Source: Escherichia virus TH58
Sequence record: MT446423.1
Strand: one strand, 5' to 3'
DNA: 64,000 nt
Shown piece after piece: positions 14,115 to 52,537 of this stretch (the stretch's first letter is position 1; each line of letters begins with the position of its first letter). The translations under genes and the position numbers were made by a program. The notes under the pieces were generated by a model. It saw only the letters and a program-made list of their open reading frames with translations. It was not told where the DNA came from and searched no databases.

Positions 14115-14936
14115 TTATTGTTTTCTAGGACCAGGAGGGGTTGGTGGAGTCGGGATTGGAATATCATGAGTATAAGTTTGTTCAACTTCACCATTCCAAT
14201 CTTGTGCTTCAACGTCTCTCGGTTTAATTTCTGTATCAACTGATTCAAAAACACTGGCGGCTGATTGAAGGTCTCGTTCATTAGCATGAAAATCAAGATA
14301 AGTCGTTTTAATAAGGCCTTCTGCTGCGCCTACCGGAGGATACATCCATCCATTTACTTCAAATGTTAATGACCACTCTAAACGTCGACGGGATAAATTA
14401 TCACCGTCTATTTGTTCATCCATTGCTGCTGACATCCATACGACTTTAATATCCCTTTCAAACGGAATATCCTGTCCATATTGCTCAATCATAGTCGTAT
14501 TAAAATGCGGCTGAAAATATGGAATAATTTGCTCAACGATTTGGAACATATCATCTTCATAACGAGTAAAGATGCTCAGTTCAAAAATCATTTTAATTGG
14601 TGATGGGTTGTATTGGTCTACAATATCCTTAGTCGATTTACTCAAAAGAGAGTTATTCAATATATTCGTTTTAAACGTTGGGTTATAAACGAAATCTACC
14701 ATTTGGAGATTTATACGTGGTAGAATAGTTTCGACTTTAGCCACATCTTCTTGTGAGTTTATAGAGGTCCATTTATTAAGTTTCATCATAAAGCGCTCTT
14801 TAGATGCGTACGTAATAGGAACTCTAATTAATTTATTGCCTGTAGACAATTGACGGTTAACTTGGATATTTGAAAACAAATCGCCCATCATTGTGATATA
14901 TCGCCTGAATGACGAGTTGTAAAAATAACCAAACAT
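14115..14936 (-). CDS. 15: tail sheath stabiliser/completion protein gp15
   Basis: Start MFGYFYNSSFRRY; about 273 aa as T4 gp15. Confidence 0.8.
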   Translation of the reverse strand: MFGYFYNSSFRRYITMMGDLFSNIQVNRQLSTGNKLIRVPITYASKERFMMKLNKWTSINSQEDVAKVETILPRINLQMVDFVYNPTFKTNILNNSLLSKSTKDIVDQYNPSPIKMIFELSIFTRYEDDMFQIVEQIIPYFQPHFNTTMIEQYGQDIPFERDIKVVWMSAAMDEQIDGDNLSRRRLEWSLTFEVNGWMYPPVGAAEGLIKTTYLDFHANERDLQSAASVFESVDTEIKPRDVEAQDWNGEVEQTYTHDIPIPTPPTPPGPRKQ

Positions 14937-14988
14937 CATTTCTCCTAACCGGCCTTTCGACCGGTGTTTGCTTTATCTTATCTATTTA

Positions 14989-15753
14989 TTAATTCATAAA
15001 CCCATCGTCAAATGGTGAATTTTGTCTACCACGGTTGTTAACTACTACATACGGCTCAACGTATTCACTTGCCTCTGAATTGATTTGCTCAACTTCAGAA
15101 TATTCATCGATATTAATGTCATGGATACCGTCAAGATTTCTAACAGGGTTAAGTTCCAAGTCACTAAATTCAGGTATATTGATACCTTCATTTTTCTGAA
15201 GCACCGGATTGATTTCTTCGCCAGAGTAAATAAACTTGCCTGCAGTAATTTTACGAATCGCATTTTTACCTACTTGATAGAATGGGTCATATGGTTCAAC
15301 CCAGTTAATCTCAAACAAACTGTTGTCCATTGGGAAGTATATTAAATCACCTTCCTTAGGCTCCTGATTGTTGACCTGGTGTTTGAAAAGACCTGGGTTA
15401 ATAGATAATGTAACTTCGTCTTGAACTTGCATTCCGAAGTTGCTGAAGAACGATTTCGCTCCTTCATAACCTTCAAAAGAGTTCAGATATGCAGCAAATT
15501 TCCATGCTTTAGTAAATTTATTTTTAAGGTCCTCACCAAAGATAAGGTCCACGGCAACATATTCACGTGGAACATAAAAACATTCAATACCGCGCATCTG
15601 TATGCTTTCTGCCACTAGAACATCGGCTAATGTCTGACTATTTTCGTATTTGTTGAAGTTCACGTATTTGTTTAAAATCTCGGTTTCATTAGTTTTAGAA
15701 TAGCCACCACGATTTTCTAGTTTGGCGAAAAGATTTTTATCATAAGTTGCCAT
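14989..15753 (-). CDS. 14: neck protein gp14
   Basis: 254 aa; synteny with T4 gp14 (256 aa). Confidence 0.8.
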
Positions 15754-37695: not shown

Positions 37696-37769
37696 GGCCC
37701 TGTAGCTCAATGGTTAGCAGCAGTCCCCTCATAAGGGAAAGGTTACCAGTTCGAATCTGGTCTGGGCCA
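37696..37769 (+). tRNA. tRNA with anticodon CAU (Met or Ile2)
   Basis: Acceptor GGCCCTG/CTGGGCC, T-arm ACCAG-TTCGAAT-CTGGT, anticodon loop CTCATAA; no encoded CCA; D-arm non-canonical. Confidence 0.6.
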
Positions 37770-37775
37770 TATATT

Positions 37776-37852
<77 letters not shown>

Positions 37853-40024: not shown

Positions 40025-40066
40025 GCTCTCGTTGGATAATAAAACCACCAATTGAAAGGTAATAAT

Positions 40067-40660
40067 ATGAACACACTAAAGAAACTTGTTGAATTCATCC
40101 GCACTAAACTGGGTACTGCTATGGCTAAAAATCTGACTGTCGAAGAACAGTATAACGCAGCCGCAGATAAGTTGATTACCCAAATCAAAGAACTAAAAAC
40201 GGCTTCTGTTAAATCTATTAATGAAGAAAAACGTATTCGCGAACTTGCTAATGAAAAGAACAAGCAAGCTGCTTCTAAGGAACGTGAAATTCGTAAGCTC
40301 CTGGCTGAAGGACAAGATGTTACCATGCATGCTAAGCTTGGTCTTCTGTATCGTCGAACTGCCGAACAACTTAATACAAAAGCTGCCGGGTATGCCGCTA
40401 TGCGAATTGAAATTGCTCGTAAGGTGGTTGAACTTGATGATGCTCGTCAGAATCTGGCAATCAAACTCGAATACATTCGTGAAACTCGAGCAGCTAATGC
40501 CCTTGGTATCTCTACGGCTGATGATGTAATTGAAATCGCTGCACTGACTAAGGTTGATATCGAAGACACTCTGACTCGTGTTGAAACGTTCAATGGCACT
40601 CCAACCGGTGTCGAAACCACTTCTGCTGATGTACAAGAATATATTAACTCTTTGAAATAA
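40067..40660 (+). CDS. coiled-coil protein (weak PspA/IM30-like character)
   Basis: 197 aa, almost entirely heptad-like helical sequence. Confidence 0.4.
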
Positions 40661-40709: not shown

Positions 40710-41306
40710 ATGCGAAACCAAAATAATGATATTGACTCGATGTTCGAAGAGTTCCGAAATAAGGTAAATCCACCTACGTCTTTAGTTGATTCATTACGAT
40801 ATATTGCAACTGGACGTAAATGGTACTGGTCGTCTTCTTATGAGACAACTGAATATGCAAATAACCGAAAATCTTTATTAGCCCCAGGTATTATGATTCA
40901 TGATATCGGAGCTATTGCTAAACTAGTTGCAGACCATGATATTAGATTCACTGATTTCGTTGCTCCTACGTGGTCTGTTTGTTGTTTAAACACTGAATGG
41001 GACTATATCAGTGAACGCTCTGAAGATTATTATGGTTTTAGAGATAAGCTCTTAAGGTCTAACATGTTTTATATCGATACTGAAGTCCTAGTCGATAATA
41101 AAAAATATTACTTTACGTTAATCGTCGATTCTGAAACTATGTATGAAGGCAAGCCTTTGCTTAAAAGAGTTGATGCTTTAAGTGCTATTGATGCGCTTTA
41201 TGAAACTATGGTTGTTAGTCCTAATTTCACTAACAATTTAATCCTTGAGCAATTTATTATGGAATGTAGAGAATATGTCAAAGCCAACCCTATACATGCC
41301 AAGTAA
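40710..41306 (+). CDS. hypothetical protein ending in FIMECR motif
   Basis: AAGGAG RBS then ATG 40710; 198 aa. Confidence 0.45.
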   Translation: MRNQNNDIDSMFEEFRNKVNPPTSLVDSLRYIATGRKWYWSSSYETTEYANNRKSLLAPGIMIHDIGAIAKLVADHDIRFTDFVAPTWSVCCLNTEWDYISERSEDYYGFRDKLLRSNMFYIDTEVLVDNKKYYFTLIVDSETMYEGKPLLKRVDALSAIDALYETMVVSPNFTNNLILEQFIMECREYVKANPIHAK

Positions 41307-41670
41307 GCCCTGGGCATACGAATACAAACGTAAATTAATTCCTAATGAAGTGTTGTTTGGTCCTATTTTAGCTTTAGCATTTTTAATCTTTATGATTATA
41401 GGAGCTATTTTAGATTCCAATAAAGTTATATCGTCTGATGCAGTGTTTTTACTTATTATAGTCGGGTCGTTTATTGTACCATTTTTATTAATGCCTATTA
41501 ACTGGGTGGGATATTGGTACCAAGGACGTCATCATAGAGCCCGATTAAGAGAATGGAAAGTTCAGTGCGCAAAAGCCCAAGCTCAGTATGACGAAGCTGT
41601 TAAAAAGTATGAATATGAAGAAGCTATGGAATTCGTTAAGGAAATAAGATGCAAAAGCCTCAACTCTTAA
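41275..41670 (+). CDS. small membrane protein ending in FVKEIRCK motif
   Basis: About 131 aa with two TM segments. Confidence 0.45.
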   Translation: MSKPTLYMPSKPWAYEYKRKLIPNEVLFGPILALAFLIFMIIGAILDSNKVISSDAVFLLIIVGSFIVPFLLMPINWVGYWYQGRHHRARLREWKVQCAKAQAQYDEAVKKYEYEEAMEFVKEIRCKSLNS

Positions 41671-42008
41671 CCGTATGGCCTTCTCTTGGTGAGAACATTC
41701 TAATTTTTATTATGAGTATTGGCATGGGATTTGCCTTTGGACTAGTTGGATTTCTTATTGACGGTGTTGTGTTAGGATTTATAGGGAACACCGGTGGATT
41801 CACAGACCAATGGCAGGACTTACGGTATACCCAAGCCTTTGCATCCATCGCATCCTTTTGTACTGTAGTCTATTTTTACTATGATTTTATAAGCCATAAC
41901 AAGAAAAATAAAAAGGTTTACGCTTCTCAAATGATTAGTTATAATGAACTCCTAGCTAGACGTGAAAATGAAACAATAGAAAACTTTATTAAGGAATGTA
42001 GAAAATGA
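41649..42008 (+). CDS. small membrane protein ending in NFIKECRK
   Basis: 119 aa with two TM segments. Confidence 0.45.
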   Translation: MQKPQLLTVWPSLGENILIFIMSIGMGFAFGLVGFLIDGVVLGFIGNTGGFTDQWQDLRYTQAFASIASFCTVVYFYYDFISHNKKNKKVYASQMISYNELLARRENETIENFIKECRK

Positions 42009-42310
42009 GTAAGATTATTGAAATTAAAGTACCAGAGTTTAATGATGCCAAATCCGCTTCAGATGCAATTTATAAACTTCTGAATCAAGCTGAACGTATC
42101 GAAGAAGAGGCAACAAAGATCGCAGACCAATACGCCGTATCATTTTCTGTAGGTGATTATGGTAGCGGTCGTACTTATTATCCTAAGGGTGAAATCGTAT
42201 CCCAGTGGATGAAAGATGAAATTGAAAATAATGGTGGCGATGTTAAGCGTGAAGGTAATGGTTACGTTATTACTGAAGGTGCTTGGGTTTCGTCTTCTGC
42301 GTTGTGCTAA
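42005..42310 (+). CDS. paralog 1 of tandem trio (C-terminus GAWVSSSALC)
   Basis: 101 aa. Confidence 0.45.
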   Translation: MSKIIEIKVPEFNDAKSASDAIYKLLNQAERIEEEATKIADQYAVSFSVGDYGSGRTYYPKGEIVSQWMKDEIENNGGDVKREGNGYVITEGAWVSSSALC

Positions 42311-42321
42311 GGGGAATCATT

Positions 42322-42594
42322 ATGTCTAAAGAACAAACCGAACTGGCTGAAGCTGTAGCAAAAATCTATGCAGCTATTGAGGCTGCCAAAGAAATTGCTG
42401 ATAAACAAAACACAACATTCGACTTGTGTCCAGCTTATGGTATGGGCGGAACCTATCATTCACCCGGACAACTTAAAGCCGATCTTGAACGTTGTACAAA
42501 AAACGGCTATGCTGAATGGGCTGACGTTTACCAATACGACTACAATCTGAGCCTCGAAACTGGTGGTTGGATTGCATCTTCTCACACTTGTTAA
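42322..42594 (+). CDS. paralog 2 of tandem trio (C-terminus GGWIASSHTC)
   Basis: About 90 aa. Confidence 0.45.
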   Translation: MSKEQTELAEAVAKIYAAIEAAKEIADKQNTTFDLCPAYGMGGTYHSPGQLKADLERCTKNGYAEWADVYQYDYNLSLETGGWIASSHTC

Positions 42595-42603
42595 GGAAAC
42601 CAT

Positions 42604-42801
42604 ATGTCTCGTGAATTAGATTGTGCTGTACGTACGGCAGTAGCTGCTCTGGAAAACCTGTTCCAAATTGCAACAGAAGAACGCGAAGAAGTTACATTAT
42701 GGATTGAAGATAACGCAGGTCTGAATCTCCAGAACGCAATCTCGGTATCAAATAATAGTATTACTGTTCAAGGCTGGGTATCATCTAGTTATTCTTGCTA
42801 A
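42604..42801 (+). CDS. paralog 3 of tandem trio (C-terminus QGWVSSSYSC)
   Basis: 65 aa. Confidence 0.45.
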   Translation: MSRELDCAVRTAVAALENLFQIATEEREEVTLWIEDNAGLNLQNAISVSNNSITVQGWVSSSYSC

Positions 42802-42805
42802 AACA

Positions 42806-42836
42806 GTTTACAACAAGATAGGGCTATGTTATAGTA
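42806..42836 (+). promoter_or_regulatory. early promoter cassette (GTTTAC ... TGTTATAGTA) with inverted repeat
   Basis: GATAGGGCT / AGTCCTATC arms around the -10. Confidence 0.5.
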
Positions 42837-42863
42837 GTCCTATCAAATTAAATGGAGTCCACA

Positions 42864-43103
42864 ATGATTTATTACGAAAGTGTTGGAACCAAAGTGGTTG
42901 GTAAAACCATTACTCGTGAAAAGTTTGCTAAGATATTCGATATGCGTTATAAAAAATCTGAACACAAAGGCATTCGATTCGAAGATGCGCACTGTACAAT
43001 TTGCCCTTATAATGAAGACATAAATGGTACAATCGTTCCATTGGTAGAGGCTTCACACGATGACCTCTGGGATGAATATGATATCGCATGTCGTGAAATT
43101 TAA
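42864..43103 (+). CDS. hypothetical protein
   Basis: GGAG RBS then ATG 42864; about 79 aa. Confidence 0.4.
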   Translation: MIYYESVGTKVVGKTITREKFAKIFDMRYKKSEHKGIRFEDAHCTICPYNEDINGTIVPLVEASHDDLWDEYDIACREI

Positions 43104-43131
43104 GTTAATGAATTAATCCGAGGAAAATATT

Positions 43132-44088
43132 ATGATGTTAGTTATTGGTTCTCGTGCACTTCACTATCACGGTCTTATTGATTCTAATGCTATCAAAAAT
43201 AGTGACTGGGACTTTATTGCAGACCAAGGTTCTTGGAATGCATTTAAAAATCAAATGATGGGTGTATATGTTCATCAAGATAACCCTGATGTCCAAGTTT
43301 TCAAATGCTTCCATAACGGACGCGAAACTCATTTTGAAGCATATATTGTTCCGGCAATCACTAATGTCCGTGAATTAGTAGGTGAACTCACTCCTGAAGA
43401 TTTCACGTCTTCTTATGACCTTTTAAAATACGCCAAGAAAAATTTGTCTAAAGATCATTTGAACGGGTTTTACTGGGCAACTCCTGAGATGTGTCTTGCA
43501 ATTAAGATGTCTCATCGTTTCAAGAAAAATAATCCATTCTTTTTAAAGACTATGAACCATATTCAGTATCTTCGTGGTAAAGGTGTTACACTGAACGATG
43601 AACTTACTGAAATTATGCTGAAACGCCAGAAAGAAACCTTGAACTATGCTCACCCAGTTCTTGACACTTCTAAAAGTGCGTTCTTTAAAGATGACATCTA
43701 TACTTATGACCATGATACTATTCATGAAGCCATTGCACTAACAGACCGTCCAGCGTATACATTTTATATGAAAGACGGTTCTGAAGTCATGACCTCACGT
43801 GAGAAGTTCGAATCATTACCAGAAATGGTCAAATTGGCCGGTGTATATGAAGAATCATGTGTACTAGCATTAGAACGTTCTCAGATTCCTAATGACTTTA
43901 AAATTAACCCTGAAGCCAGTTTTATGATGGCATTGGAAAAAGTCTGTACAAGCATCACCTCCGGTTGGTTCCGTGAGTACGCATACGAGAACTATTATGA
44001 AGTAGTGGCTATGTATCATAAGCTCGGCAAAAATGATTACGTCAAACGTTTCAAACAAAATTTCCATATGGTAAAACCTTTCAAATAG
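43132..44088 (+). CDS. hypothetical protein, possible nucleotidyltransferase fold
   Basis: 318 aa; N-terminal VIGSRAL...SDWDFI loosely resembles a GS...DxD motif. Confidence 0.4.
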   Translation: MMLVIGSRALHYHGLIDSNAIKNSDWDFIADQGSWNAFKNQMMGVYVHQDNPDVQVFKCFHNGRETHFEAYIVPAITNVRELVGELTPEDFTSSYDLLKYAKKNLSKDHLNGFYWATPEMCLAIKMSHRFKKNNPFFLKTMNHIQYLRGKGVTLNDELTEIMLKRQKETLNYAHPVLDTSKSAFFKDDIYTYDHDTIHEAIALTDRPAYTFYMKDGSEVMTSREKFESLPEMVKLAGVYEESCVLALERSQIPNDFKINPEASFMMALEKVCTSITSGWFREYAYENYYEVVAMYHKLGKNDYVKRFKQNFHMVKPFK

Positions 44089-44100
44089 TTTCGCAAAGCT

Positions 44101-44131
44101 GTTTACAACATGATAGGACTATGTTATAGTA
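44101..44131 (+). promoter_or_regulatory. early promoter cassette (GTTTAC ... TGTTATAGTA) with inverted repeat
   Basis: ATAGGACT / AGTCCTAT arms around the -10. Confidence 0.5.
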
Positions 44132-44158
44132 GTCCTATTAAAACATGAGGAGAATATT

Positions 44159-44464
44159 ATGAAATTAGGCGAAACCAACCGAATTGGTCTTTTAACAATA
44201 TTTGCATCACCTTTTTACGCAGCTCTTTCTGTTGCAGTATTACAAAAGGCTTACGATATGGATGGTGTTCCTGGTTTTGTATTCTTATCGCCGTTTTTGC
44301 TATTCGTTGGAGCATTGTTATTATATGCCACGACTAGTTTCGACCATAATGTCTGGGTCAATTATAAATGTAAATTGTCTGAAGAAGAACACGCGGAAGC
44401 TCGTAAAAAAGCTATTGAATCTACCAATCTAGAAAATTTCATTAAAGAATGTCGAGGAAAATAA
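44159..44464 (+). CDS. small membrane protein ending in NFIKECRGK
   Basis: 101 aa with two TM segments. Confidence 0.45.
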   Translation: MKLGETNRIGLLTIFASPFYAALSVAVLQKAYDMDGVPGFVFLSPFLLFVGALLLYATTSFDHNVWVNYKCKLSEEEHAEARKKAIESTNLENFIKECRGK

Positions 44465-44465
44465 T

Positions 44466-45152
44466 ATGAATAGTTCTAAAGTGTTTAATAGTCAAGCTCG
44501 TGCAGTAGGTGGTTTTGCTCATGCGATTAAAAACGACCAGATTAAAAACGAGCCTATGTTCTTTAACTGTGATTTGAATTTTGCTTTTGATAATGGCGGC
44601 CCAATTACTCGTAGCTTTATCCAAAATCTTCCCGACGATTGGAAAGACTCGGATGTAGTATTTGATTCACGAGTTCACATGCTGATGCCTGGTTGGTATC
44701 CTGCTATTCCTGGATATCACCATGATGATGTTCCTCGCCCTGATATTCCAGTTGGTCAACACTTTATTACTGCAGGACAACCTGATTATGACAACCCTCG
44801 TTACCATTCTGAACATATTCTTGGTCTTGTTAACGCTGATGTGTGTCCTACTCATTTTGCAACAGGAACTGCAGAGTTCAGTCAGATTCCTGATGGCGAA
44901 CTTATCTATCGCCAGTGGCACAAAGAAGTCCTCGAAAAAATCGAAAAAGGCGAACTAGAGAAATGGGAAGCTCCAGATCATACTCTTCTTCAGTTTGATT
45001 GGCAAACATGGCACACTGGTTCTCGTGCAATTAGTAATGGATGGCGTTGGTTCGGCCGTGTATCTCGTAATACAGACCGAGTTAAAAAGATTACCAATGA
45101 AATTCGTGTCAACGCTCAAGTTTATCTGGAATTCCCTATGGAAGGCTGGTAA
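44466..45152 (+). CDS. hypothetical protein (weak HxD...H pattern)
   Basis: 228 aa; YHHDD and WHTGSR motifs. Confidence 0.4.
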   Translation: MNSSKVFNSQARAVGGFAHAIKNDQIKNEPMFFNCDLNFAFDNGGPITRSFIQNLPDDWKDSDVVFDSRVHMLMPGWYPAIPGYHHDDVPRPDIPVGQHFITAGQPDYDNPRYHSEHILGLVNADVCPTHFATGTAEFSQIPDGELIYRQWHKEVLEKIEKGELEKWEAPDHTLLQFDWQTWHTGSRAISNGWRWFGRVSRNTDRVKKITNEIRVNAQVYLEFPMEGW

Positions 45153-45631
45153 TGATTAACAATAATATAGACGATGGCAATGAAGGTATTTCATACTATT
45201 CAGTAGATTGGACAGGATGTCCATCCTACTTAGTGAAACATATTTGCCAAGAATTTAAAATCGACCAGCCAGCAGGTATTATCGTGAACAGATACATTAA
45301 TGGATATCAACCTATCGATGAAGTAATACGAACAACTCAAGCTGAGCTTGAAAGGTTTTTCAATAAGTGCCAATGGATAACAGGATGGATTATATTTGTA
45401 CCATCTATATGGTTTTTCAGTACTAAGGTGAGTTCTTTCGGTTTTGTTGATATTATTGCTATCTTATTAGCATCTAGTATCATAAGTGTTGTTGGTGGCA
45501 TCATCGGCGGCGGTACCGCCGCCATCATTATTAATCTTATTAAAAGTAGTTTACAAGAACATAAAGACAAGATAAAGGCCAAGAATAATGAAGTTGAACG
45601 TTTTATTACCGAATGCAGGAATTTGAGATGA
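45152..45631 (+). CDS. membrane protein ending in RFITECRNLR
   Basis: 159 aa with glycine-rich TM segment. Confidence 0.45.
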   Translation: MINNNIDDGNEGISYYSVDWTGCPSYLVKHICQEFKIDQPAGIIVNRYINGYQPIDEVIRTTQAELERFFNKCQWITGWIIFVPSIWFFSTKVSSFGFVDIIAILLASSIISVVGGIIGGGTAAIIINLIKSSLQEHKDKIKAKNNEVERFITECRNLR

Positions 45632-45864
45632 GTATAGCAATTTACATTAAATCAGAATCATGTGATTCTTATCTGTATTCCTATGATACCGGAACGTCAG
45701 AAGAGAAAATCAAAGAAGATTTAGAAAGCGACTTGGATATGTTCCGACCTATTTCTGATTATATGGTCCAAATATCTGATAGTGAAAGTCCGTCAACAGA
45801 AACATGTGTTGAAATTATTATACGAGATATCTTTAAACGATCATGGGACCGAGATGATGAGTAA
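45628..45864 (+). CDS. hypothetical acidic protein
   Basis: About 78 aa from ATG 45628 with AGGA RBS. Confidence 0.4.
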   Translation: MSIAIYIKSESCDSYLYSYDTGTSEEKIKEDLESDLDMFRPISDYMVQISDSESPSTETCVEIIIRDIFKRSWDRDDE

Positions 45865-46312
45865 GAAAAATAAAGTGAAAGAACTATCAGCCGGTATTAT
45901 TTTCCTTACCGAAGATAAAGAATTATTCATGGGGCGTGTAACTGGTTCTCGTCCTAAAGGTTCTTTAGCTCATCGGTGGGATATTCCTAAAGGTCATGTC
46001 GAGCCCGGCGAATCTCCTATTGAAGCCGCTATTCGTGAATGCGAAGAAGAAACTGGGTTTACACAATATGACCCTGCCTTCCTGAAAGACCTAGGTGAAC
46101 ATCGTTACTCAGACAATAAGAATATTCATCTGTTCCTATATACCATCCCTGTAGAGCACGAGCAATTCAGAAACAGTGTTTGTAATTCCTATCATACGTT
46201 CCCAGATGGTCGACAGATTCCTGAATTTGATGCATTCGCTTTAATTAAACCTTCTCAATGGGAATATGTAATGGGCAAATCATTATATAAGGTGCTCACT
46301 ACCATCCTATAA
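45854..46312 (+). CDS. nudE: Nudix hydrolase
   Basis: Nudix box GHVEPGESPIEAAIRECEEETGF; directly upstream of lysozyme e as T4 nudE. Confidence 0.8.
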   Translation: MMSKKNKVKELSAGIIFLTEDKELFMGRVTGSRPKGSLAHRWDIPKGHVEPGESPIEAAIRECEEETGFTQYDPAFLKDLGEHRYSDNKNIHLFLYTIPVEHEQFRNSVCNSYHTFPDGRQIPEFDAFALIKPSQWEYVMGKSLYKVLTTIL

Positions 46313-46320
46313 GTAATAAA

Positions 46321-46344
46321 TACCTCCTATAAACGTGGGAGGTA
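46321..46344 (+). promoter_or_regulatory. RBS-sequestering hairpin (TACCTCC / GGAGGTA) upstream of e, with TATAAA in loop
   Basis: 7-bp inverted repeat whose 3' arm contains the GGGAGG Shine-Dalgarno of e. Confidence 0.5.
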
Positions 46345-46346
46345 TT

Positions 46347-46835
46347 ATGAATATATTTGAAATGCTTCGTAATGACGAAGGTCTTAGACTGTCTTTATAC
46401 AAAGACACTGAAGGCTTTTGGACGATTGGCATAGGTCATTTAGTAACAAAGAACCCGTCTTTAGCCGTAGCTAAAGCTGAACTTGACAGAATGATCGGAC
46501 GTAAATGCAATGGTACAATTACCCTTGATGAGGCTGAAAAGCTATTTAATGAAGACGTTGATAAAGCCGTTCGCGGAATCTTGGGTAATGCTAAACTTAA
46601 ACCGGTATATGATTCTTTAGATGCAGTTCGTCGATGTGCATTGGTCAATATGGTCTTCCAAATGGGTGTAGCAGGCGTCGCTGGTTTTACTAATTCTCTT
46701 CGTATGCTTCAACAGAAACGTTGGGACGAAGCGGCAGTAAATCTAGCCCAATCTAAATGGTATCGTCAGACACCTAATCGCGCGAAACGCGTAATCTCAA
46801 CATTTAAAACAGGAACTTGGAAAGCGTATATATGA
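46347..46835 (+). CDS. e: endolysin (T4 lysozyme)
   Basis: N-terminus [32 protein letters not shown] matches T4 lysozyme; 162 aa. Confidence 0.9.
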
Positions 46836-47676: not shown

Positions 47677-47979
47677 ATGAAAACATATCAAGAATTTATT
47701 ACTGAAGCGCGAGTGAGTGCAGGTAAATTAGAAGCCGCTATAAATAAAAAGGCCTATTCATTTCACGATTTGTCCGATAAAGACCGTAAGAAACTTGTAA
47801 GCCTTTATATTGACAAAGAGCGTATTCTCGCTCTTCCTGGCGCTAATGAAGGTAAACAGGCCAAGCCTTTGAATGCTGTCGAAAAGAAAATTGATAACTT
47901 TGCTTCTAAATTCGGTATGTCTATGGATGACCTTCAGCAAGCGGCTATCGAAGCAGCTAAAGTAATTAAAGGTAAATAA
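47677..47979 (+). CDS. internal protein with capsid-targeting sequence
   Basis: N-terminus MKTYQEFITEARV; 100 aa. Confidence 0.55.
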   Translation: MKTYQEFITEARVSAGKLEAAINKKAYSFHDLSDKDRKKLVSLYIDKERILALPGANEGKQAKPLNAVEKKIDNFASKFGMSMDDLQQAAIEAAKVIKGK

Positions 47980-47981
47980 CA

Positions 47982-48010
47982 GTTTACTTTCTCCTAGAAT
48001 TGTGATAGTA
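47982..48010 (+). promoter_or_regulatory. early promoter cassette (GTTTAC ... TGTGATAGTA)
   Basis: Family member upstream of the denV-remnant ORF. Confidence 0.45.
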
Positions 48011-48058
48011 TATTCATAATTACTTGGATGGGTAAAATGACTCAATGAAAAAATTTTA

Positions 48059-48241
48059 ATGAAGCCACACTGGTATAAGTATTACGGCAAAAATATTTAC
48101 ATTCAAATAACATGGGAACAACCTGGACCTCATGATTCTATGAGGGATTCCCGCCAACCTGTAATAAGGTCGAGCCCAAGTGCGGTAATGGGTAAATACA
48201 GAAATGGACAATTCATGTGCCATGGAATGGCCCAAACCTAG
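48059..48241 (+). pseudogene. ghost of a denV 3' end (PHWYKYYGKNIY) fused to a short ORF
   Basis: Codons 3-14 (48065-48100) duplicate the denV C-terminus with many synonymous changes. Confidence 0.4.
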
Positions 48242-48245
48242 AGAG
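48154..48245 (+). repeat. direct repeat copy A (about 92 bp) upstream of the internal-protein gene
   Basis: CCAACCTGTAATAAGGTCGAGC...GCGGTAATGGG...ATGTGCCATGGAATGGCCCAAACCT repeated at 48651-48745. Confidence 0.6.
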
Positions 48246-48251
48246 AACAAA

Positions 48252-48581
48252 ATGAAAACATATCAAGAGTTTATCACTGAAGTTACATTATCTGCGGAAC
48301 AGAAAGCTGCTATCGAAGAAGCTAAAAATCCCAAAGTAACATATAAAGTAAATAGTAAAGGCGTTTTTGATGACTTGGTTCAAGACCCTGAATTGAAAAA
48401 AGCTCTTTCTAAAACTAATGCGTACTTTGCTCCTAAATTTAACACAGCCGGCGTACTTATTGGATTGGATGTATTCAACTCTAAAGGTGTTCTATCTAGT
48501 GCCTTTGGTTATGCCGCTAACAAAATTACCAAAGCCGCATGGGAATCCAATACCAAACAAGCTCAAAAGCCTAGAGTATAA
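48252..48581 (+). CDS. internal protein with capsid-targeting sequence
   Basis: N-terminus MKTYQEFITEVTL; 109 aa; flanked by direct repeats. Confidence 0.55.
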   Translation: MKTYQEFITEVTLSAEQKAAIEEAKNPKVTYKVNSKGVFDDLVQDPELKKALSKTNAYFAPKFNTAGVLIGLDVFNSKGVLSSAFGYAANKITKAAWESNTKQAQKPRV

Positions 48582-48650
48582 TTCTTGCCTAATAAAGGGA
48601 AACGCAACCTCTCCTTATGAACGTCGAGTCCTCTAAGTGATGTACCTTTT

Positions 48651-51733: not shown

Positions 51734-52077
51734 CCAAAATGTTGGCTTTAATAGTTGGCTTGGTTTCATTTAACGCTCTTGCTAATACTACATATACTGA
51801 TGTAACGGAGTATACAAACAGAACGGCGTCTGATTATTGTGGTCAAAGTCAAGAGTGTAAAGTAGATTTTTCACAAAAATTGTTATATGCGTATAAAGAC
51901 GGAGAAAAAGATGGGGCGTCTAGTAGGTTCAAGGCGTCTACCTTAATTAAAAGATACTATAAAAAATGGCAAATATTAGAATGCTCGGTGGCGGAACCTA
52001 AAGATAAGGCAGCATGCAATTCTATGGTGGACCGTCTAGTTGACTCTTATACTAGAGGACTTGCAGCAAGTGATTAA
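51730..52077 (+). CDS. small secreted cysteine-containing protein (T4 vs position)
   Basis: Signal peptide MTKMLALIVGLVSFNALA; four Cys; ATGA overlap with the SLT gene. Confidence 0.5.
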   Translation: MTKMLALIVGLVSFNALANTTYTDVTEYTNRTASDYCGQSQECKVDFSQKLLYAYKDGEKDGASSRFKASTLIKRYYKKWQILECSVAEPKDKAACNSMVDRLVDSYTRGLAASD

Positions 52078-52537
52078 AAACTATATCAAGGGCGATATTG
52101 TCGCCCTGTTTTCTAAAGGTAATAATATTGCTCATGGGTGTAATTGTTTTCATACAATGGGCGCCGGCGTGGCAGGACAATTAGCAAAGGCTTATCCAAA
52201 AATTTTAGAAGCCGATAAACTTCAAACCGAATTCGGAGACGAGTCTAAACTCGGGACTTATTCGGTTTATGAAAAATATTTTAAGACACATAAAGCTTAT
52301 TGCTTTAATCTTTATACACAGTTTGAGCCGGGACCTAATTTTGAGTACTCTGCTTTAATGAATTGTATAATAGAATTAAATGAATTCGGAAAGAATAAGA
52401 TAACAAAGCCTGTAATTTATATGCCAAGAATTGGTGCAGGTATCGGTGGTGGAAACTGGGATGTCATCGAAGAGATTTTAGATACGTATTCCACTAAACT
52501 AGAAATTGTGATTGTTGATTGGGAACCATTATTATGA
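52070..52537 (+). CDS. TARG1/OARD1-like macrodomain protein (T4 tk.4 position)
   Basis: KGDIVA...IAHGCNCFHTMGAGVAG and YMPRIGAGIGGGNWDVIEEIL align with TARG1 motifs; start uncertain (GTG 52070 with GAGGA RBS, or TTG 52040). Confidence 0.6.
   Translation: MIKNYIKGDIVALFSKGNNIAHGCNCFHTMGAGVAGQLAKAYPKILEADKLQTEFGDESKLGTYSVYEKYFKTHKAYCFNLYTQFEPGPNFEYSALMNCIIELNEFGKNKITKPVIYMPRIGAGIGGGNWDVIEEILDTYSTKLEIVIVDWEPLL

Follow-up and report, generated by a model that had tools for sequence, protein, structure and literature searches.

Two neighbouring early-type genes of a Mosigvirus are predicted to encode a MenT/AbiEii-like nucleotidyltransferase and an Fe(II)/2-oxoglutarate dioxygenase

MenT toxins transfer nucleotides onto the 3' ends of tRNAs, for which a DxD pair and a lysine and an aspartate of the C-lobe are required (PMC7450476, PMC10435456), and their motif III has been described as CCA-enzyme-like (PMC7450476). 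In MenT1, the motif III lysine K137 and the motif IV aspartate D152 are both essential for toxicity. As to oxygenases of phages, T4-like cyanomyoviruses carry stand-alone 2-oxoglutarate (2OG)-Fe(II) oxygenase or phytanoyl-CoA dioxygenase genes of unknown substrate in their hyperplastic regions (PMC3037559). The phage NAD+ reconstitution pathway NARP2 consists of two enzymes, NAMPT and NMNAT, and has no oxygenase. Here, two open reading frames (ORFs) of Escherichia virus TH58 (sequence record MT446423.1) are compared to these systems. They lie in a stretch of 64,000 nucleotides (nt), referred to as the window, which belongs to a Mosigvirus (RB69/HX01-like T-even coliphage). A sequence-only reading had proposed a possible second nucleotidyltransferase (NTase) fold for the ORF at 43132 (ORF1, 318 amino acids, aa) and an HxD…H metal-binding enzyme for the ORF at 44466 (ORF2, 228 aa). 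Both ORFs exist as claimed and are conserved genes. At the level of fold, both proteins fall in well-known enzyme superfamilies, and the families themselves are uncharacterised. We infer catalysis for both proteins, and the joint assignment of their enzyme classes, substrates excluded, is given a probability of about 0.72. The two genes and their proposed sites are as follows.

43132..44088, plus strand: ORF1, 318 aa, ATG start; predicted MenT/AbiEii-like NTase; Pfam DUF7277 and DUF7275; phrog_2141
43135..43434, plus strand: N-terminal alpha/beta head of ORF1, DUF7277, residues 2-101 (Pfam match, predicted strands and helices)
43147-43152, plus strand: codons of ORF1 G6-S7, proposed Pol beta-type metal/nucleoside triphosphate (NTP) site
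43204-43212, plus strand: codons of ORF1 D25-x-D27, same proposed metal/NTP site
43336-43338, plus strand: codon of ORF1 E69, same proposed metal/NTP site
43489..44046, plus strand: helical domain of ORF1, DUF7275, residues 120-305 (Pfam match, invariant residues)
44466..45152, plus strand: ORF2, 228 aa, ATG start; predicted Fe(II)/2OG dioxygenase with a PhyH-like double-stranded beta-helix; phrog_1843
44718..44726, plus strand: ORF2 codons H85-H86-D87, proximal HxD of the proposed 2-His-1-carboxylate iron site
45012..45047, plus strand: ORF2 codons H183 to R194, distal histidine and proposed 2OG-binding arginine

ORF1 belongs to a large family, with 2129 relatives at E<=1e-3 in a set of 5.8 billion proteins and 733 phage records found by tblastn. 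Its Pfam matches are strong (DUF7277, E 1e-27; DUF7275, E 1e-77), and the function of phrog_2141 is listed as unknown in PHROGs. The AlphaFold2 model is confident (predicted local distance difference test score, pLDDT, 93.5; predicted template modelling score, pTM, 0.88) and contains an alpha/beta NTase fold in a two-lobed shape matching MenT. The Foldseek search returned 5uvd (E 7e-4) and MenT1 (E 1.2e-3, over 184 of the 195 MenT1 residues), followed by Cid1, Pol μ, PolX and OAS1, indicating that residues 1 to ~200 form a complete two-lobed MenT-type NTase; the suspected NTase fold was therefore recovered. The first half of the helical domain resembles the MenT C-lobe, and residues ~200-318 have no solved structural counterpart.

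The hG[GS] turn and [DE]h[DE]h pair of Pol beta-like NTases are both present in ORF1, as I5-G6-S7 and D25-W-D27-F. These lie within VIGSRAL (residues 4-10) and SDWDFI (residues 24-29), where a looser GS…DxD pattern had been noticed beforehand, and that pattern is borne out by the invariance of G6, S7, D25 and D27. In the model, G6-S7 is located at the junction of strand 1 and the following helix, D25-x-D27 where strand 26-31 begins, and E69, the third acidic residue, on strand 64-73. These residues, E69 included, are invariant among 72 long-form sequences reaching down to 46% identity. A compact form of ~250 aa, with a trimmed head retained, is common in actinophages. When long and compact forms are aligned together (26 sequences, 28-75% identity), the invariant positions are G6, S7, A9, D25, D27, K125, H128, K139, H194, D195, H198, E240, E241, E248, R249 and a few structural positions. 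The compact forms carry A-[ED]-x-F-W-H at the place of E69, as read from this alignment, its automatic version being offset by two columns there. A headless or 'split' DUF7275 in actinophages was also considered and is ruled out, as the compact forms keep both GS and DxD. The invariance of the full Pol β-type catalytic signature throughout the family argues for an active enzyme. ORF1 is with good confidence predicted to be a Pol beta-superfamily NTase.

At the level of sequence families, ORF1 stands apart from the known NTases. No AbiEii/DUF1814 Pfam match was obtained at E<=10 for any of the 72 members, no PADLOC match at E<=1 and no NCBIfam match for ORF1, and a weak match to a DUF6036 NTase was insignificant; searches of PDB sequences with the protein and its family profile gave no significant match. 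T4 nrdC.11 (NC_000866, 55435-56445), annotated as 'nucleotidyltransferase', also has no sequence match to ORF1; an nrdC.11 equivalent in the window may be the first nucleotidyltransferase that the sequence-only reading implied by its word 'second'. The invariant K125 plausibly corresponds to the motif III lysine of MenT. Position 143, 18 residues after K125, is D in 36 and H in 30 of the 72 sequences (H in this phage) and is a candidate for the motif IV aspartate. The MenT and AbiEii toxins (MenT1 8an4, MenT3/TglT 6j7n, MenT4 6y56), whose sequence models do not match ORF1, differ from it in further respects. ORF1 carries an additional conserved helical extension of ~120 residues with HDxxH, EE and ER motifs, and it is a solitary early gene of lytic phages, whereas these toxins belong to toxin-antitoxin pairs. 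No AbiEi/MenA-type antitoxin adjoins ORF1, the flanking ORFs, of 83 aa and of 101 aa (the latter hydrophobic), having no Pfam match to AbiEi-type regulators. Class II CCA-adding enzymes and tRNA nucleotidyltransferases belong to the same superfamily, and their acceptor, the tRNA 3' end, is also the one proposed here for ORF1.

The genomic surroundings of ORF1 relatives are rich in tRNA genes. Such genes occur within 8 kb at 52 of 73 viral-contig loci of compact ORF1 relatives (274 tRNAs; nearest at a median of 1.7 kb) and at 17 of 23 T4-like loci, compared with 12 of 57 control loci that have ORF2 only. After de-replication at 70% identity, tRNA genes are near 23/35 compact-ORF1 clusters versus 7/21 control clusters (p=0.027). 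Recurrent neighbours of the compact form are Pnkp (AAA_33 + HAD_PNKP) and Rnl1-type RNA ligase, each in 13 loci, and a PF09414 RNA ligase lies immediately 5' of it in 7 loci. The tightest partner, a protein of ~126 aa without Pfam match, directly follows the compact gene in 62 of 64 loci; no homologue of it could be detected in the window (best E 0.17). For this partner (for example L138:9731-10111; loci L089-L161), tandem arrays of 2-3 copies are frequent, and in some cases the copies overlap by 4 nt. In Gordonia phage ClubL, the compact ORF1-family gene 16 lies 1.2 kb upstream of a tRNA cluster.

Taken together, the fold neighbours and the tRNA and RNA-repair context make an RNA acceptor, the tRNA 3' end, the best guess for ORF1, and tRNA is put forward tentatively, by analogy, at somewhat less than even odds. 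In the proposed mechanism, D25, D27 and E69 of the alpha/beta head would hold two Mg2+ ions and the G6-S7 turn would position the NTP; the helical lobe (K125, H128, K139) would close the active site, and the ~120-residue extension (H194-D195-x-x-H198, E240-E241, E248-R249) probably binds the acceptor. The enzyme may mature, repair or edit tRNA acceptor ends during infection. An NTase acting on something other than tRNA is an unlikely alternative. Small-molecule enzymes such as ANT(2'')-Ia (4xje) and LnuA (4wh5), which modify aminoglycosides and lincosamides, are ~160-175 aa long and reside in resistance cassettes, whereas ORF1 is twice that length and its context is that of tRNA and RNA repair; in the host-protein variant, ORF1 would AMPylate a host toxin or defence protein, as MNT antitoxins neutralise HEPN RNases. 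Much less probable is a catalytically dead derivative that acts by binding, for example as a decoy for AbiE/MenT-type systems of the host or as a sponge for these or for nucleotides. The position of ORF1 outside any active NTase family at the sequence level, the alternation of D and H at position 143, and an ORF1 homologue named 'DefenseFinder protein' in one phage record are in favour of such a derivative. Against it, T4-like phages and actinophages, at 28% identity, retain G6-S7, D25, D27 and a third acidic residue without exception, which is the pattern of a working rather than a decayed metal/NTP site. That the motifs match by chance, in ORFs without any special function, could be entertained while the evidence amounted to two short motifs per ORF, and is refuted, for ORF1 and ORF2 alike, by thousands of homologues, motif conservation and fold data.

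For ORF2, 1293 relatives were found at E<=1e-3 in the same protein set, and tblastn gave 472 phage records. PHROGs gives phrog_1843 as function unknown, and no Pfam, NCBIfam or PADLOC family matches ORF2. A profile search collected 742 representatives at 50% identity, mostly stand-alone proteins of ~220 aa. The structure model is confident (pLDDT 91.5, pTM 0.89) and the double-stranded beta-helix (DSBH) fold is present. All of the best 60 structural matches are 2OG enzymes and not other cupins, and the top-ranked ones are small-molecule enzymes of the PhyH clade. For both ORFs, therefore, the structure prediction called for at the outset gave a confident model with consistent fold matches. The accompanying expectation of profile and structure support held for structure in both cases and failed for sequence profiles, as neither ORF has a significant match to curated NTase or 2OG families.

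Conservation in the ORF2 family was examined at two depths. In a close set (n=58), H85, H86, D87, D88, H183, R194 and R198 are all invariant. In a diverse set (109 of the 742 representatives, 32-54% identical to ORF2), invariance is confined to H85 and R194; conservation is at least 90% at D87, H183 and R198, and H86 and D88 are not conserved. R198-x-S200 is also conserved. H183 is located on predicted strand 182-185, and R194 stands 11 residues on, at the start of the next strand, 192-201. The motifs YHHDD (residues 84-88) and WHTGSR (residues 182-187), by which the protein had been likened to HxD…H enzymes, are upheld in part: H85-x-D87 and H183 are conserved, H86, D88 and R187 are not, and the conserved arginine is R194. 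As judged from the alignment, H85-x-D87...H183 with R194 is the canonical HxD…H triad with the putative arginine for the C5 carboxylate of 2OG. The 109-sequence conservation and the fold matches agree with the earlier view of ORF2 as an HxD…H metal-binding type of enzyme, and ORF2 is very likely an Fe(II)/2OG dioxygenase. H85, D87 and H183 would bind Fe(II) and R194 the C5 carboxylate of 2OG; oxidative decarboxylation of 2OG would then drive a hydroxylation or related oxidation of a substrate that is probably small, polar or phosphorylated.

Compared to described PhyH-like dioxygenases (EasH 4nao, proline hydroxylase H11 7dzz, EctD 4nmi, human PhyH 2a1x), ORF2 is only 9-16% identical, has no significant PF05721 match, is shorter (228 versus 250-290 aa), and differs in having its HxD inside a long loop of 40 residues. 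The cyanophage 2OG oxygenase genes resemble ORF2 by description, and there is no cyanophage among the organism names of the ORF2 matches. Against curated 2OG-oxygenase families no match was significant, the nearest being PhyH (E 0.068 in 1 of 109 members) and the BesD halogenase (E 1.3), whose alignment pairs ORF2 H183 and R194. Neither the protein nor its family profile had a significant match among PDB sequences.

Two other explanations of ORF2 have been weighed. An Fe/2OG oxygenase could act on a macromolecule, either hydroxylating a host translation or transcription protein, in the manner of prolyl and ribosomal hydroxylases, or, in an AlkB-like manner, oxidatively repairing or demethylating RNA or DNA. 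This seems rather unlikely: the top-ranked folds are small-molecule enzymes, ORF2 consists of one minimal domain of 228 aa to which no obvious peptide- or nucleic-acid-binding parts are added, and its ties to RNA ligase are weaker than its coupling to NAMPT. ORF2 could also be a metal-binding cupin or DSBH protein that is 2OG-independent or non-enzymatic, for which the absence of a significant sequence match to any 2OG-oxygenase family may be cited, as well as weak matches of three family members to the cupin AraC_binding model (E 0.003). Such a protein is very improbable, given an invariant arginine at the place of the C5-carboxylate ligand, 11 residues past the distal histidine on the next strand, and the composition of the best 60 structural matches.

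The genomic neighbourhoods of ORF2 were compared in 80 viral-contig loci, 23 of them T4-like and 57 others. An ORF1 homologue is found 0-3 kb upstream of ORF2 in 23 of the 80, all on contigs of 120-232 kb with the local gene order of this window. The other 57 loci have no ORF1-family gene within 10 kb, and the 73 compact-ORF1 loci have no ORF2-family gene within 8 kb. With the adjacency restricted to the 23 T4-like loci, functional coupling of ORF1 and ORF2 is rejected. Since the adjacency is missing outside the T4-like clade, the pairing reflects clade synteny, and the two are independent early-type accessory genes. In the presence/absence comparison that had been recommended for T4-like genomes, both genes are adjacent in all 23 T4-like loci and are absent from T4, where the best tblastn E value is 0.55 and the best family-profile E value is 0.8 over all stop-to-stop ORFs.

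Outside the T4-like clade, the commonest neighbour of ORF2 is NAMPT (PF04095 + PF18127), found in 8 metagenomic loci. The ORF2 relatives of these loci are 45-68% identical mutually, and the loci have almost no other genes in common. In 4 of the 8, from divergent phage lineages, ORF2 is translationally coupled to NAMPT, its start codon lying in a 4-nt overlap with the end of the NAMPT gene, although the NAMPTs are only 34-71% identical to the reference NAMPT of locus L071. NMNAT-NUDIX fusions and Macro-domain genes also occur near NAMPT-coupled ORF2 relatives. After de-replication, NAMPT is beside ORF2 in 7/21 clusters, as against a published NARP2 genome frequency of ~1.1%, a baseline that comes from a different data set. 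Two observations weigh against a link to NAD+. The 64-kb window has no NAMPT or NMNAT relative, only a Macro gene (52040-52537) and NudE, and NAMPT adjacency is absent in the two cultured non-T4 phage records examined. ORF2 relatives adjoin NAMPT and lie near NMNAT genes, the enzymes of NARP2, in several metagenomic phage lineages, but ORF2 of this window does not. On gene context, a role of ORF2 in NAD+ or ADP-ribose metabolism is a lead of low probability. The Macro gene of the window, the T4 tk.4 equivalent, lies 7 kb downstream of ORF2 and is 33% identical to the Macro genes near NAMPT-coupled ORF2 relatives.

In other lineages the ORF2 gene has RtcB or an RNA ligase as its neighbour, or is surrounded by early genes unrelated to these. 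In Gordonia phage ClubL, the first base of the ORF2-family gene 74 (47935-48603) is also the final base of a gene for an RtcB-like RNA ligase; in Mycobacterium phage LilhomieP the gene lies 2.2 kb downstream of RtcB and tRNA-Glu; and in Stenotrophomonas phage S72 (50 kb) a gene annotated as (p)ppGpp 3'-pyrophosphohydrolase (14755-15192) is ~0.8 kb upstream. Copies 70-81% identical to the coliphage protein occur in Aeromonas phages, a Klebsiella Rep3 plasmid-like element and prophage-like early regions, whereas for ORF1 identity falls to ~45% across a similar range of hosts (Aeromonas phages). This level of identity in ORF2 across unrelated elements implies recent horizontal spread, very strong constraint, or both. 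Its 70-80% identity across unrelated mobile elements suggests a strongly constrained, probably important activity. The Klebsiella element (contigs of 98-113 kb with Rep3, gp32, RecA and SbcCD-like genes) is possibly a phage-plasmid, and its ORF2 relatives, with those of temperate-type regions, show 70-76% identity. The temperate-type regions appear to be early regions of temperate phages, with ERF, RusA and YopX, and one of them belongs to a contig of 612 kb.

Automated hints to both assignments were already present, namely the UniRef name 'Phytanoyl-CoA dioxygenase family' for an ORF2 relative and one GenBank entry 'putative nucleotidyltransferase' for an ORF1 relative; nearly all sampled records of the two families say 'hypothetical'. 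In the literature searched, DUF7275 and DUF7277 are never named and neither family is described, including in searches on phage tRNA nucleotidyltransferases, and the jumbo-phage survey and NARP papers do not mention either family. The occurrence of ORF1 relatives in tRNA/Pnkp/RNA-ligase islands leads to a hypothesis of tRNA-targeting immunity, and the coupling of ORF2 relatives to NAMPT in divergent lineages to one of NAD+-depletion immunity. That at least one of the two families is an undescribed counter-defence enzyme is considered unlikely. Under such a role, the ORF1 family may be a phage tRNA 3'-end nucleotidyltransferase in tRNA-repair islands with Pnkp and RNA ligase, and would restore or re-edit acceptor ends damaged by tRNA-targeting host defences, for example MenT/AbiE-, HEPN- or CapRel-type toxins. 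Alternatively, the ORF2 family may be an oxygenase partner of phage NAMPT, through which NAD+-centred counter-defence would gain an oxidative step; the pathways described for it lack an oxygenase. The class assignments, with named catalytic residues, open ORF1 and ORF2 to point-mutant and in-vitro tests. Even if the functions are ordinary (such as a housekeeping-type modification), the assignments improve the annotation of those T-even genomes that serve in phage therapy.

The region around the two genes is shown below, with the T4 counterparts where these were found.

37696..37852, plus strand: tRNA-Met and tRNA-Arg genes, 5.3 kb upstream of ORF1; a setting also found for ORF1 relatives of other phages
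40052-40660: counterpart of T4 e.6, 88% identity
40689-41306: counterpart of T4 e.5, 47% identity
41245-41670: counterpart of T4 e.4, 54% identity
41649-42008: counterpart of T4 e.3, 35% identity
42807..42835, plus strand: promoter-like site TTTACA-17-TG.TATAGT, upstream of the 83-aa ORF and ORF1 (consensus match only)
42852-43103: 83-aa ORF, precedes ORF1
44102..44130, plus strand: second promoter-like site, same hexamers and extended -10, within the 70 nt that separate ORF1 from the 101-aa ORF (consensus match only)
44159..44464, plus strand: 101-aa hydrophobic putative membrane protein, phrog_9798, precedes ORF2
45152..45631, plus strand: 159-aa membrane protein, phrog_2203; C-terminus resembles T4 e.2 (37% identity over 38 aa)
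45782..46312, plus strand: NUDIX hydrolase equivalent to T4 NudE (63% identity); lies 630 nt 3' of ORF2 and delimits on the right the insertion relative to T4
46335-46835: counterpart of T4 e, 82% identity

The interval from tRNA-Arg to e measures 8,482 nt here versus 4,175 nt in T4, so the block is indeed larger than its T4 equivalent, as had been claimed. From the homology map, ORF1 and ORF2 lie within an insertion of ~3.1 kb (42005-45152) between the e.3-like and e.2/nudE-like genes. A GAGGA ribosome-binding site precedes each of the two. The 101-aa ORF stops 1 nt before the ORF2 start and therefore forms one transcription unit with ORF2, and the start of the 159-aa ORF overlaps the ORF2 stop. 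Given the two near-identical promoter-like sites and the tight packing, ORF1 and ORF2 look like members of two adjacent early-type units, the first comprising the 83-aa ORF and ORF1 and the second the 101-aa ORF, ORF2 and the 159-aa ORF. The 2.9 kb around both ORFs are 95-97% identical to Escherichia phages PHB12, AV109 and HX01, in which nearly all genes under the match are labelled 'hypothetical protein'.

Several small genes of the region are related to each other. The hydrophobic membrane-type ORFs at 41245-41670, 41649-42008, 44159-44464 and 45152-45631 have a C-terminal motif in common (...EFVKEIRC..., ...NFIKECRK, ...NFIKECRGK and ...RFITECRNLR). Their T4 counterparts are e.4, e.3 and, judged by the C-terminus, e.2, and the shared motif indicates that the e.2-e.4 genes are a paralogous family, with four copies in the window, two of them flanking ORF2. 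Three tandem small ORFs (42005-42310, 42283-42594 and 42604-42801) share a C-terminal ...G(A/G)W(V/I)(S/A)SS..C and a G..TY..PG core; phrog_899 and phrog_4882 were assigned among them in a scan covering the two outer ORFs. The three probably represent a second local expansion of paralogues, one that T4 does not have. The HX01 RefSeq labels 'major capsid protein' for the 83-aa ORF and 'tail completion protein' for one of the tandem small ORFs look spurious.

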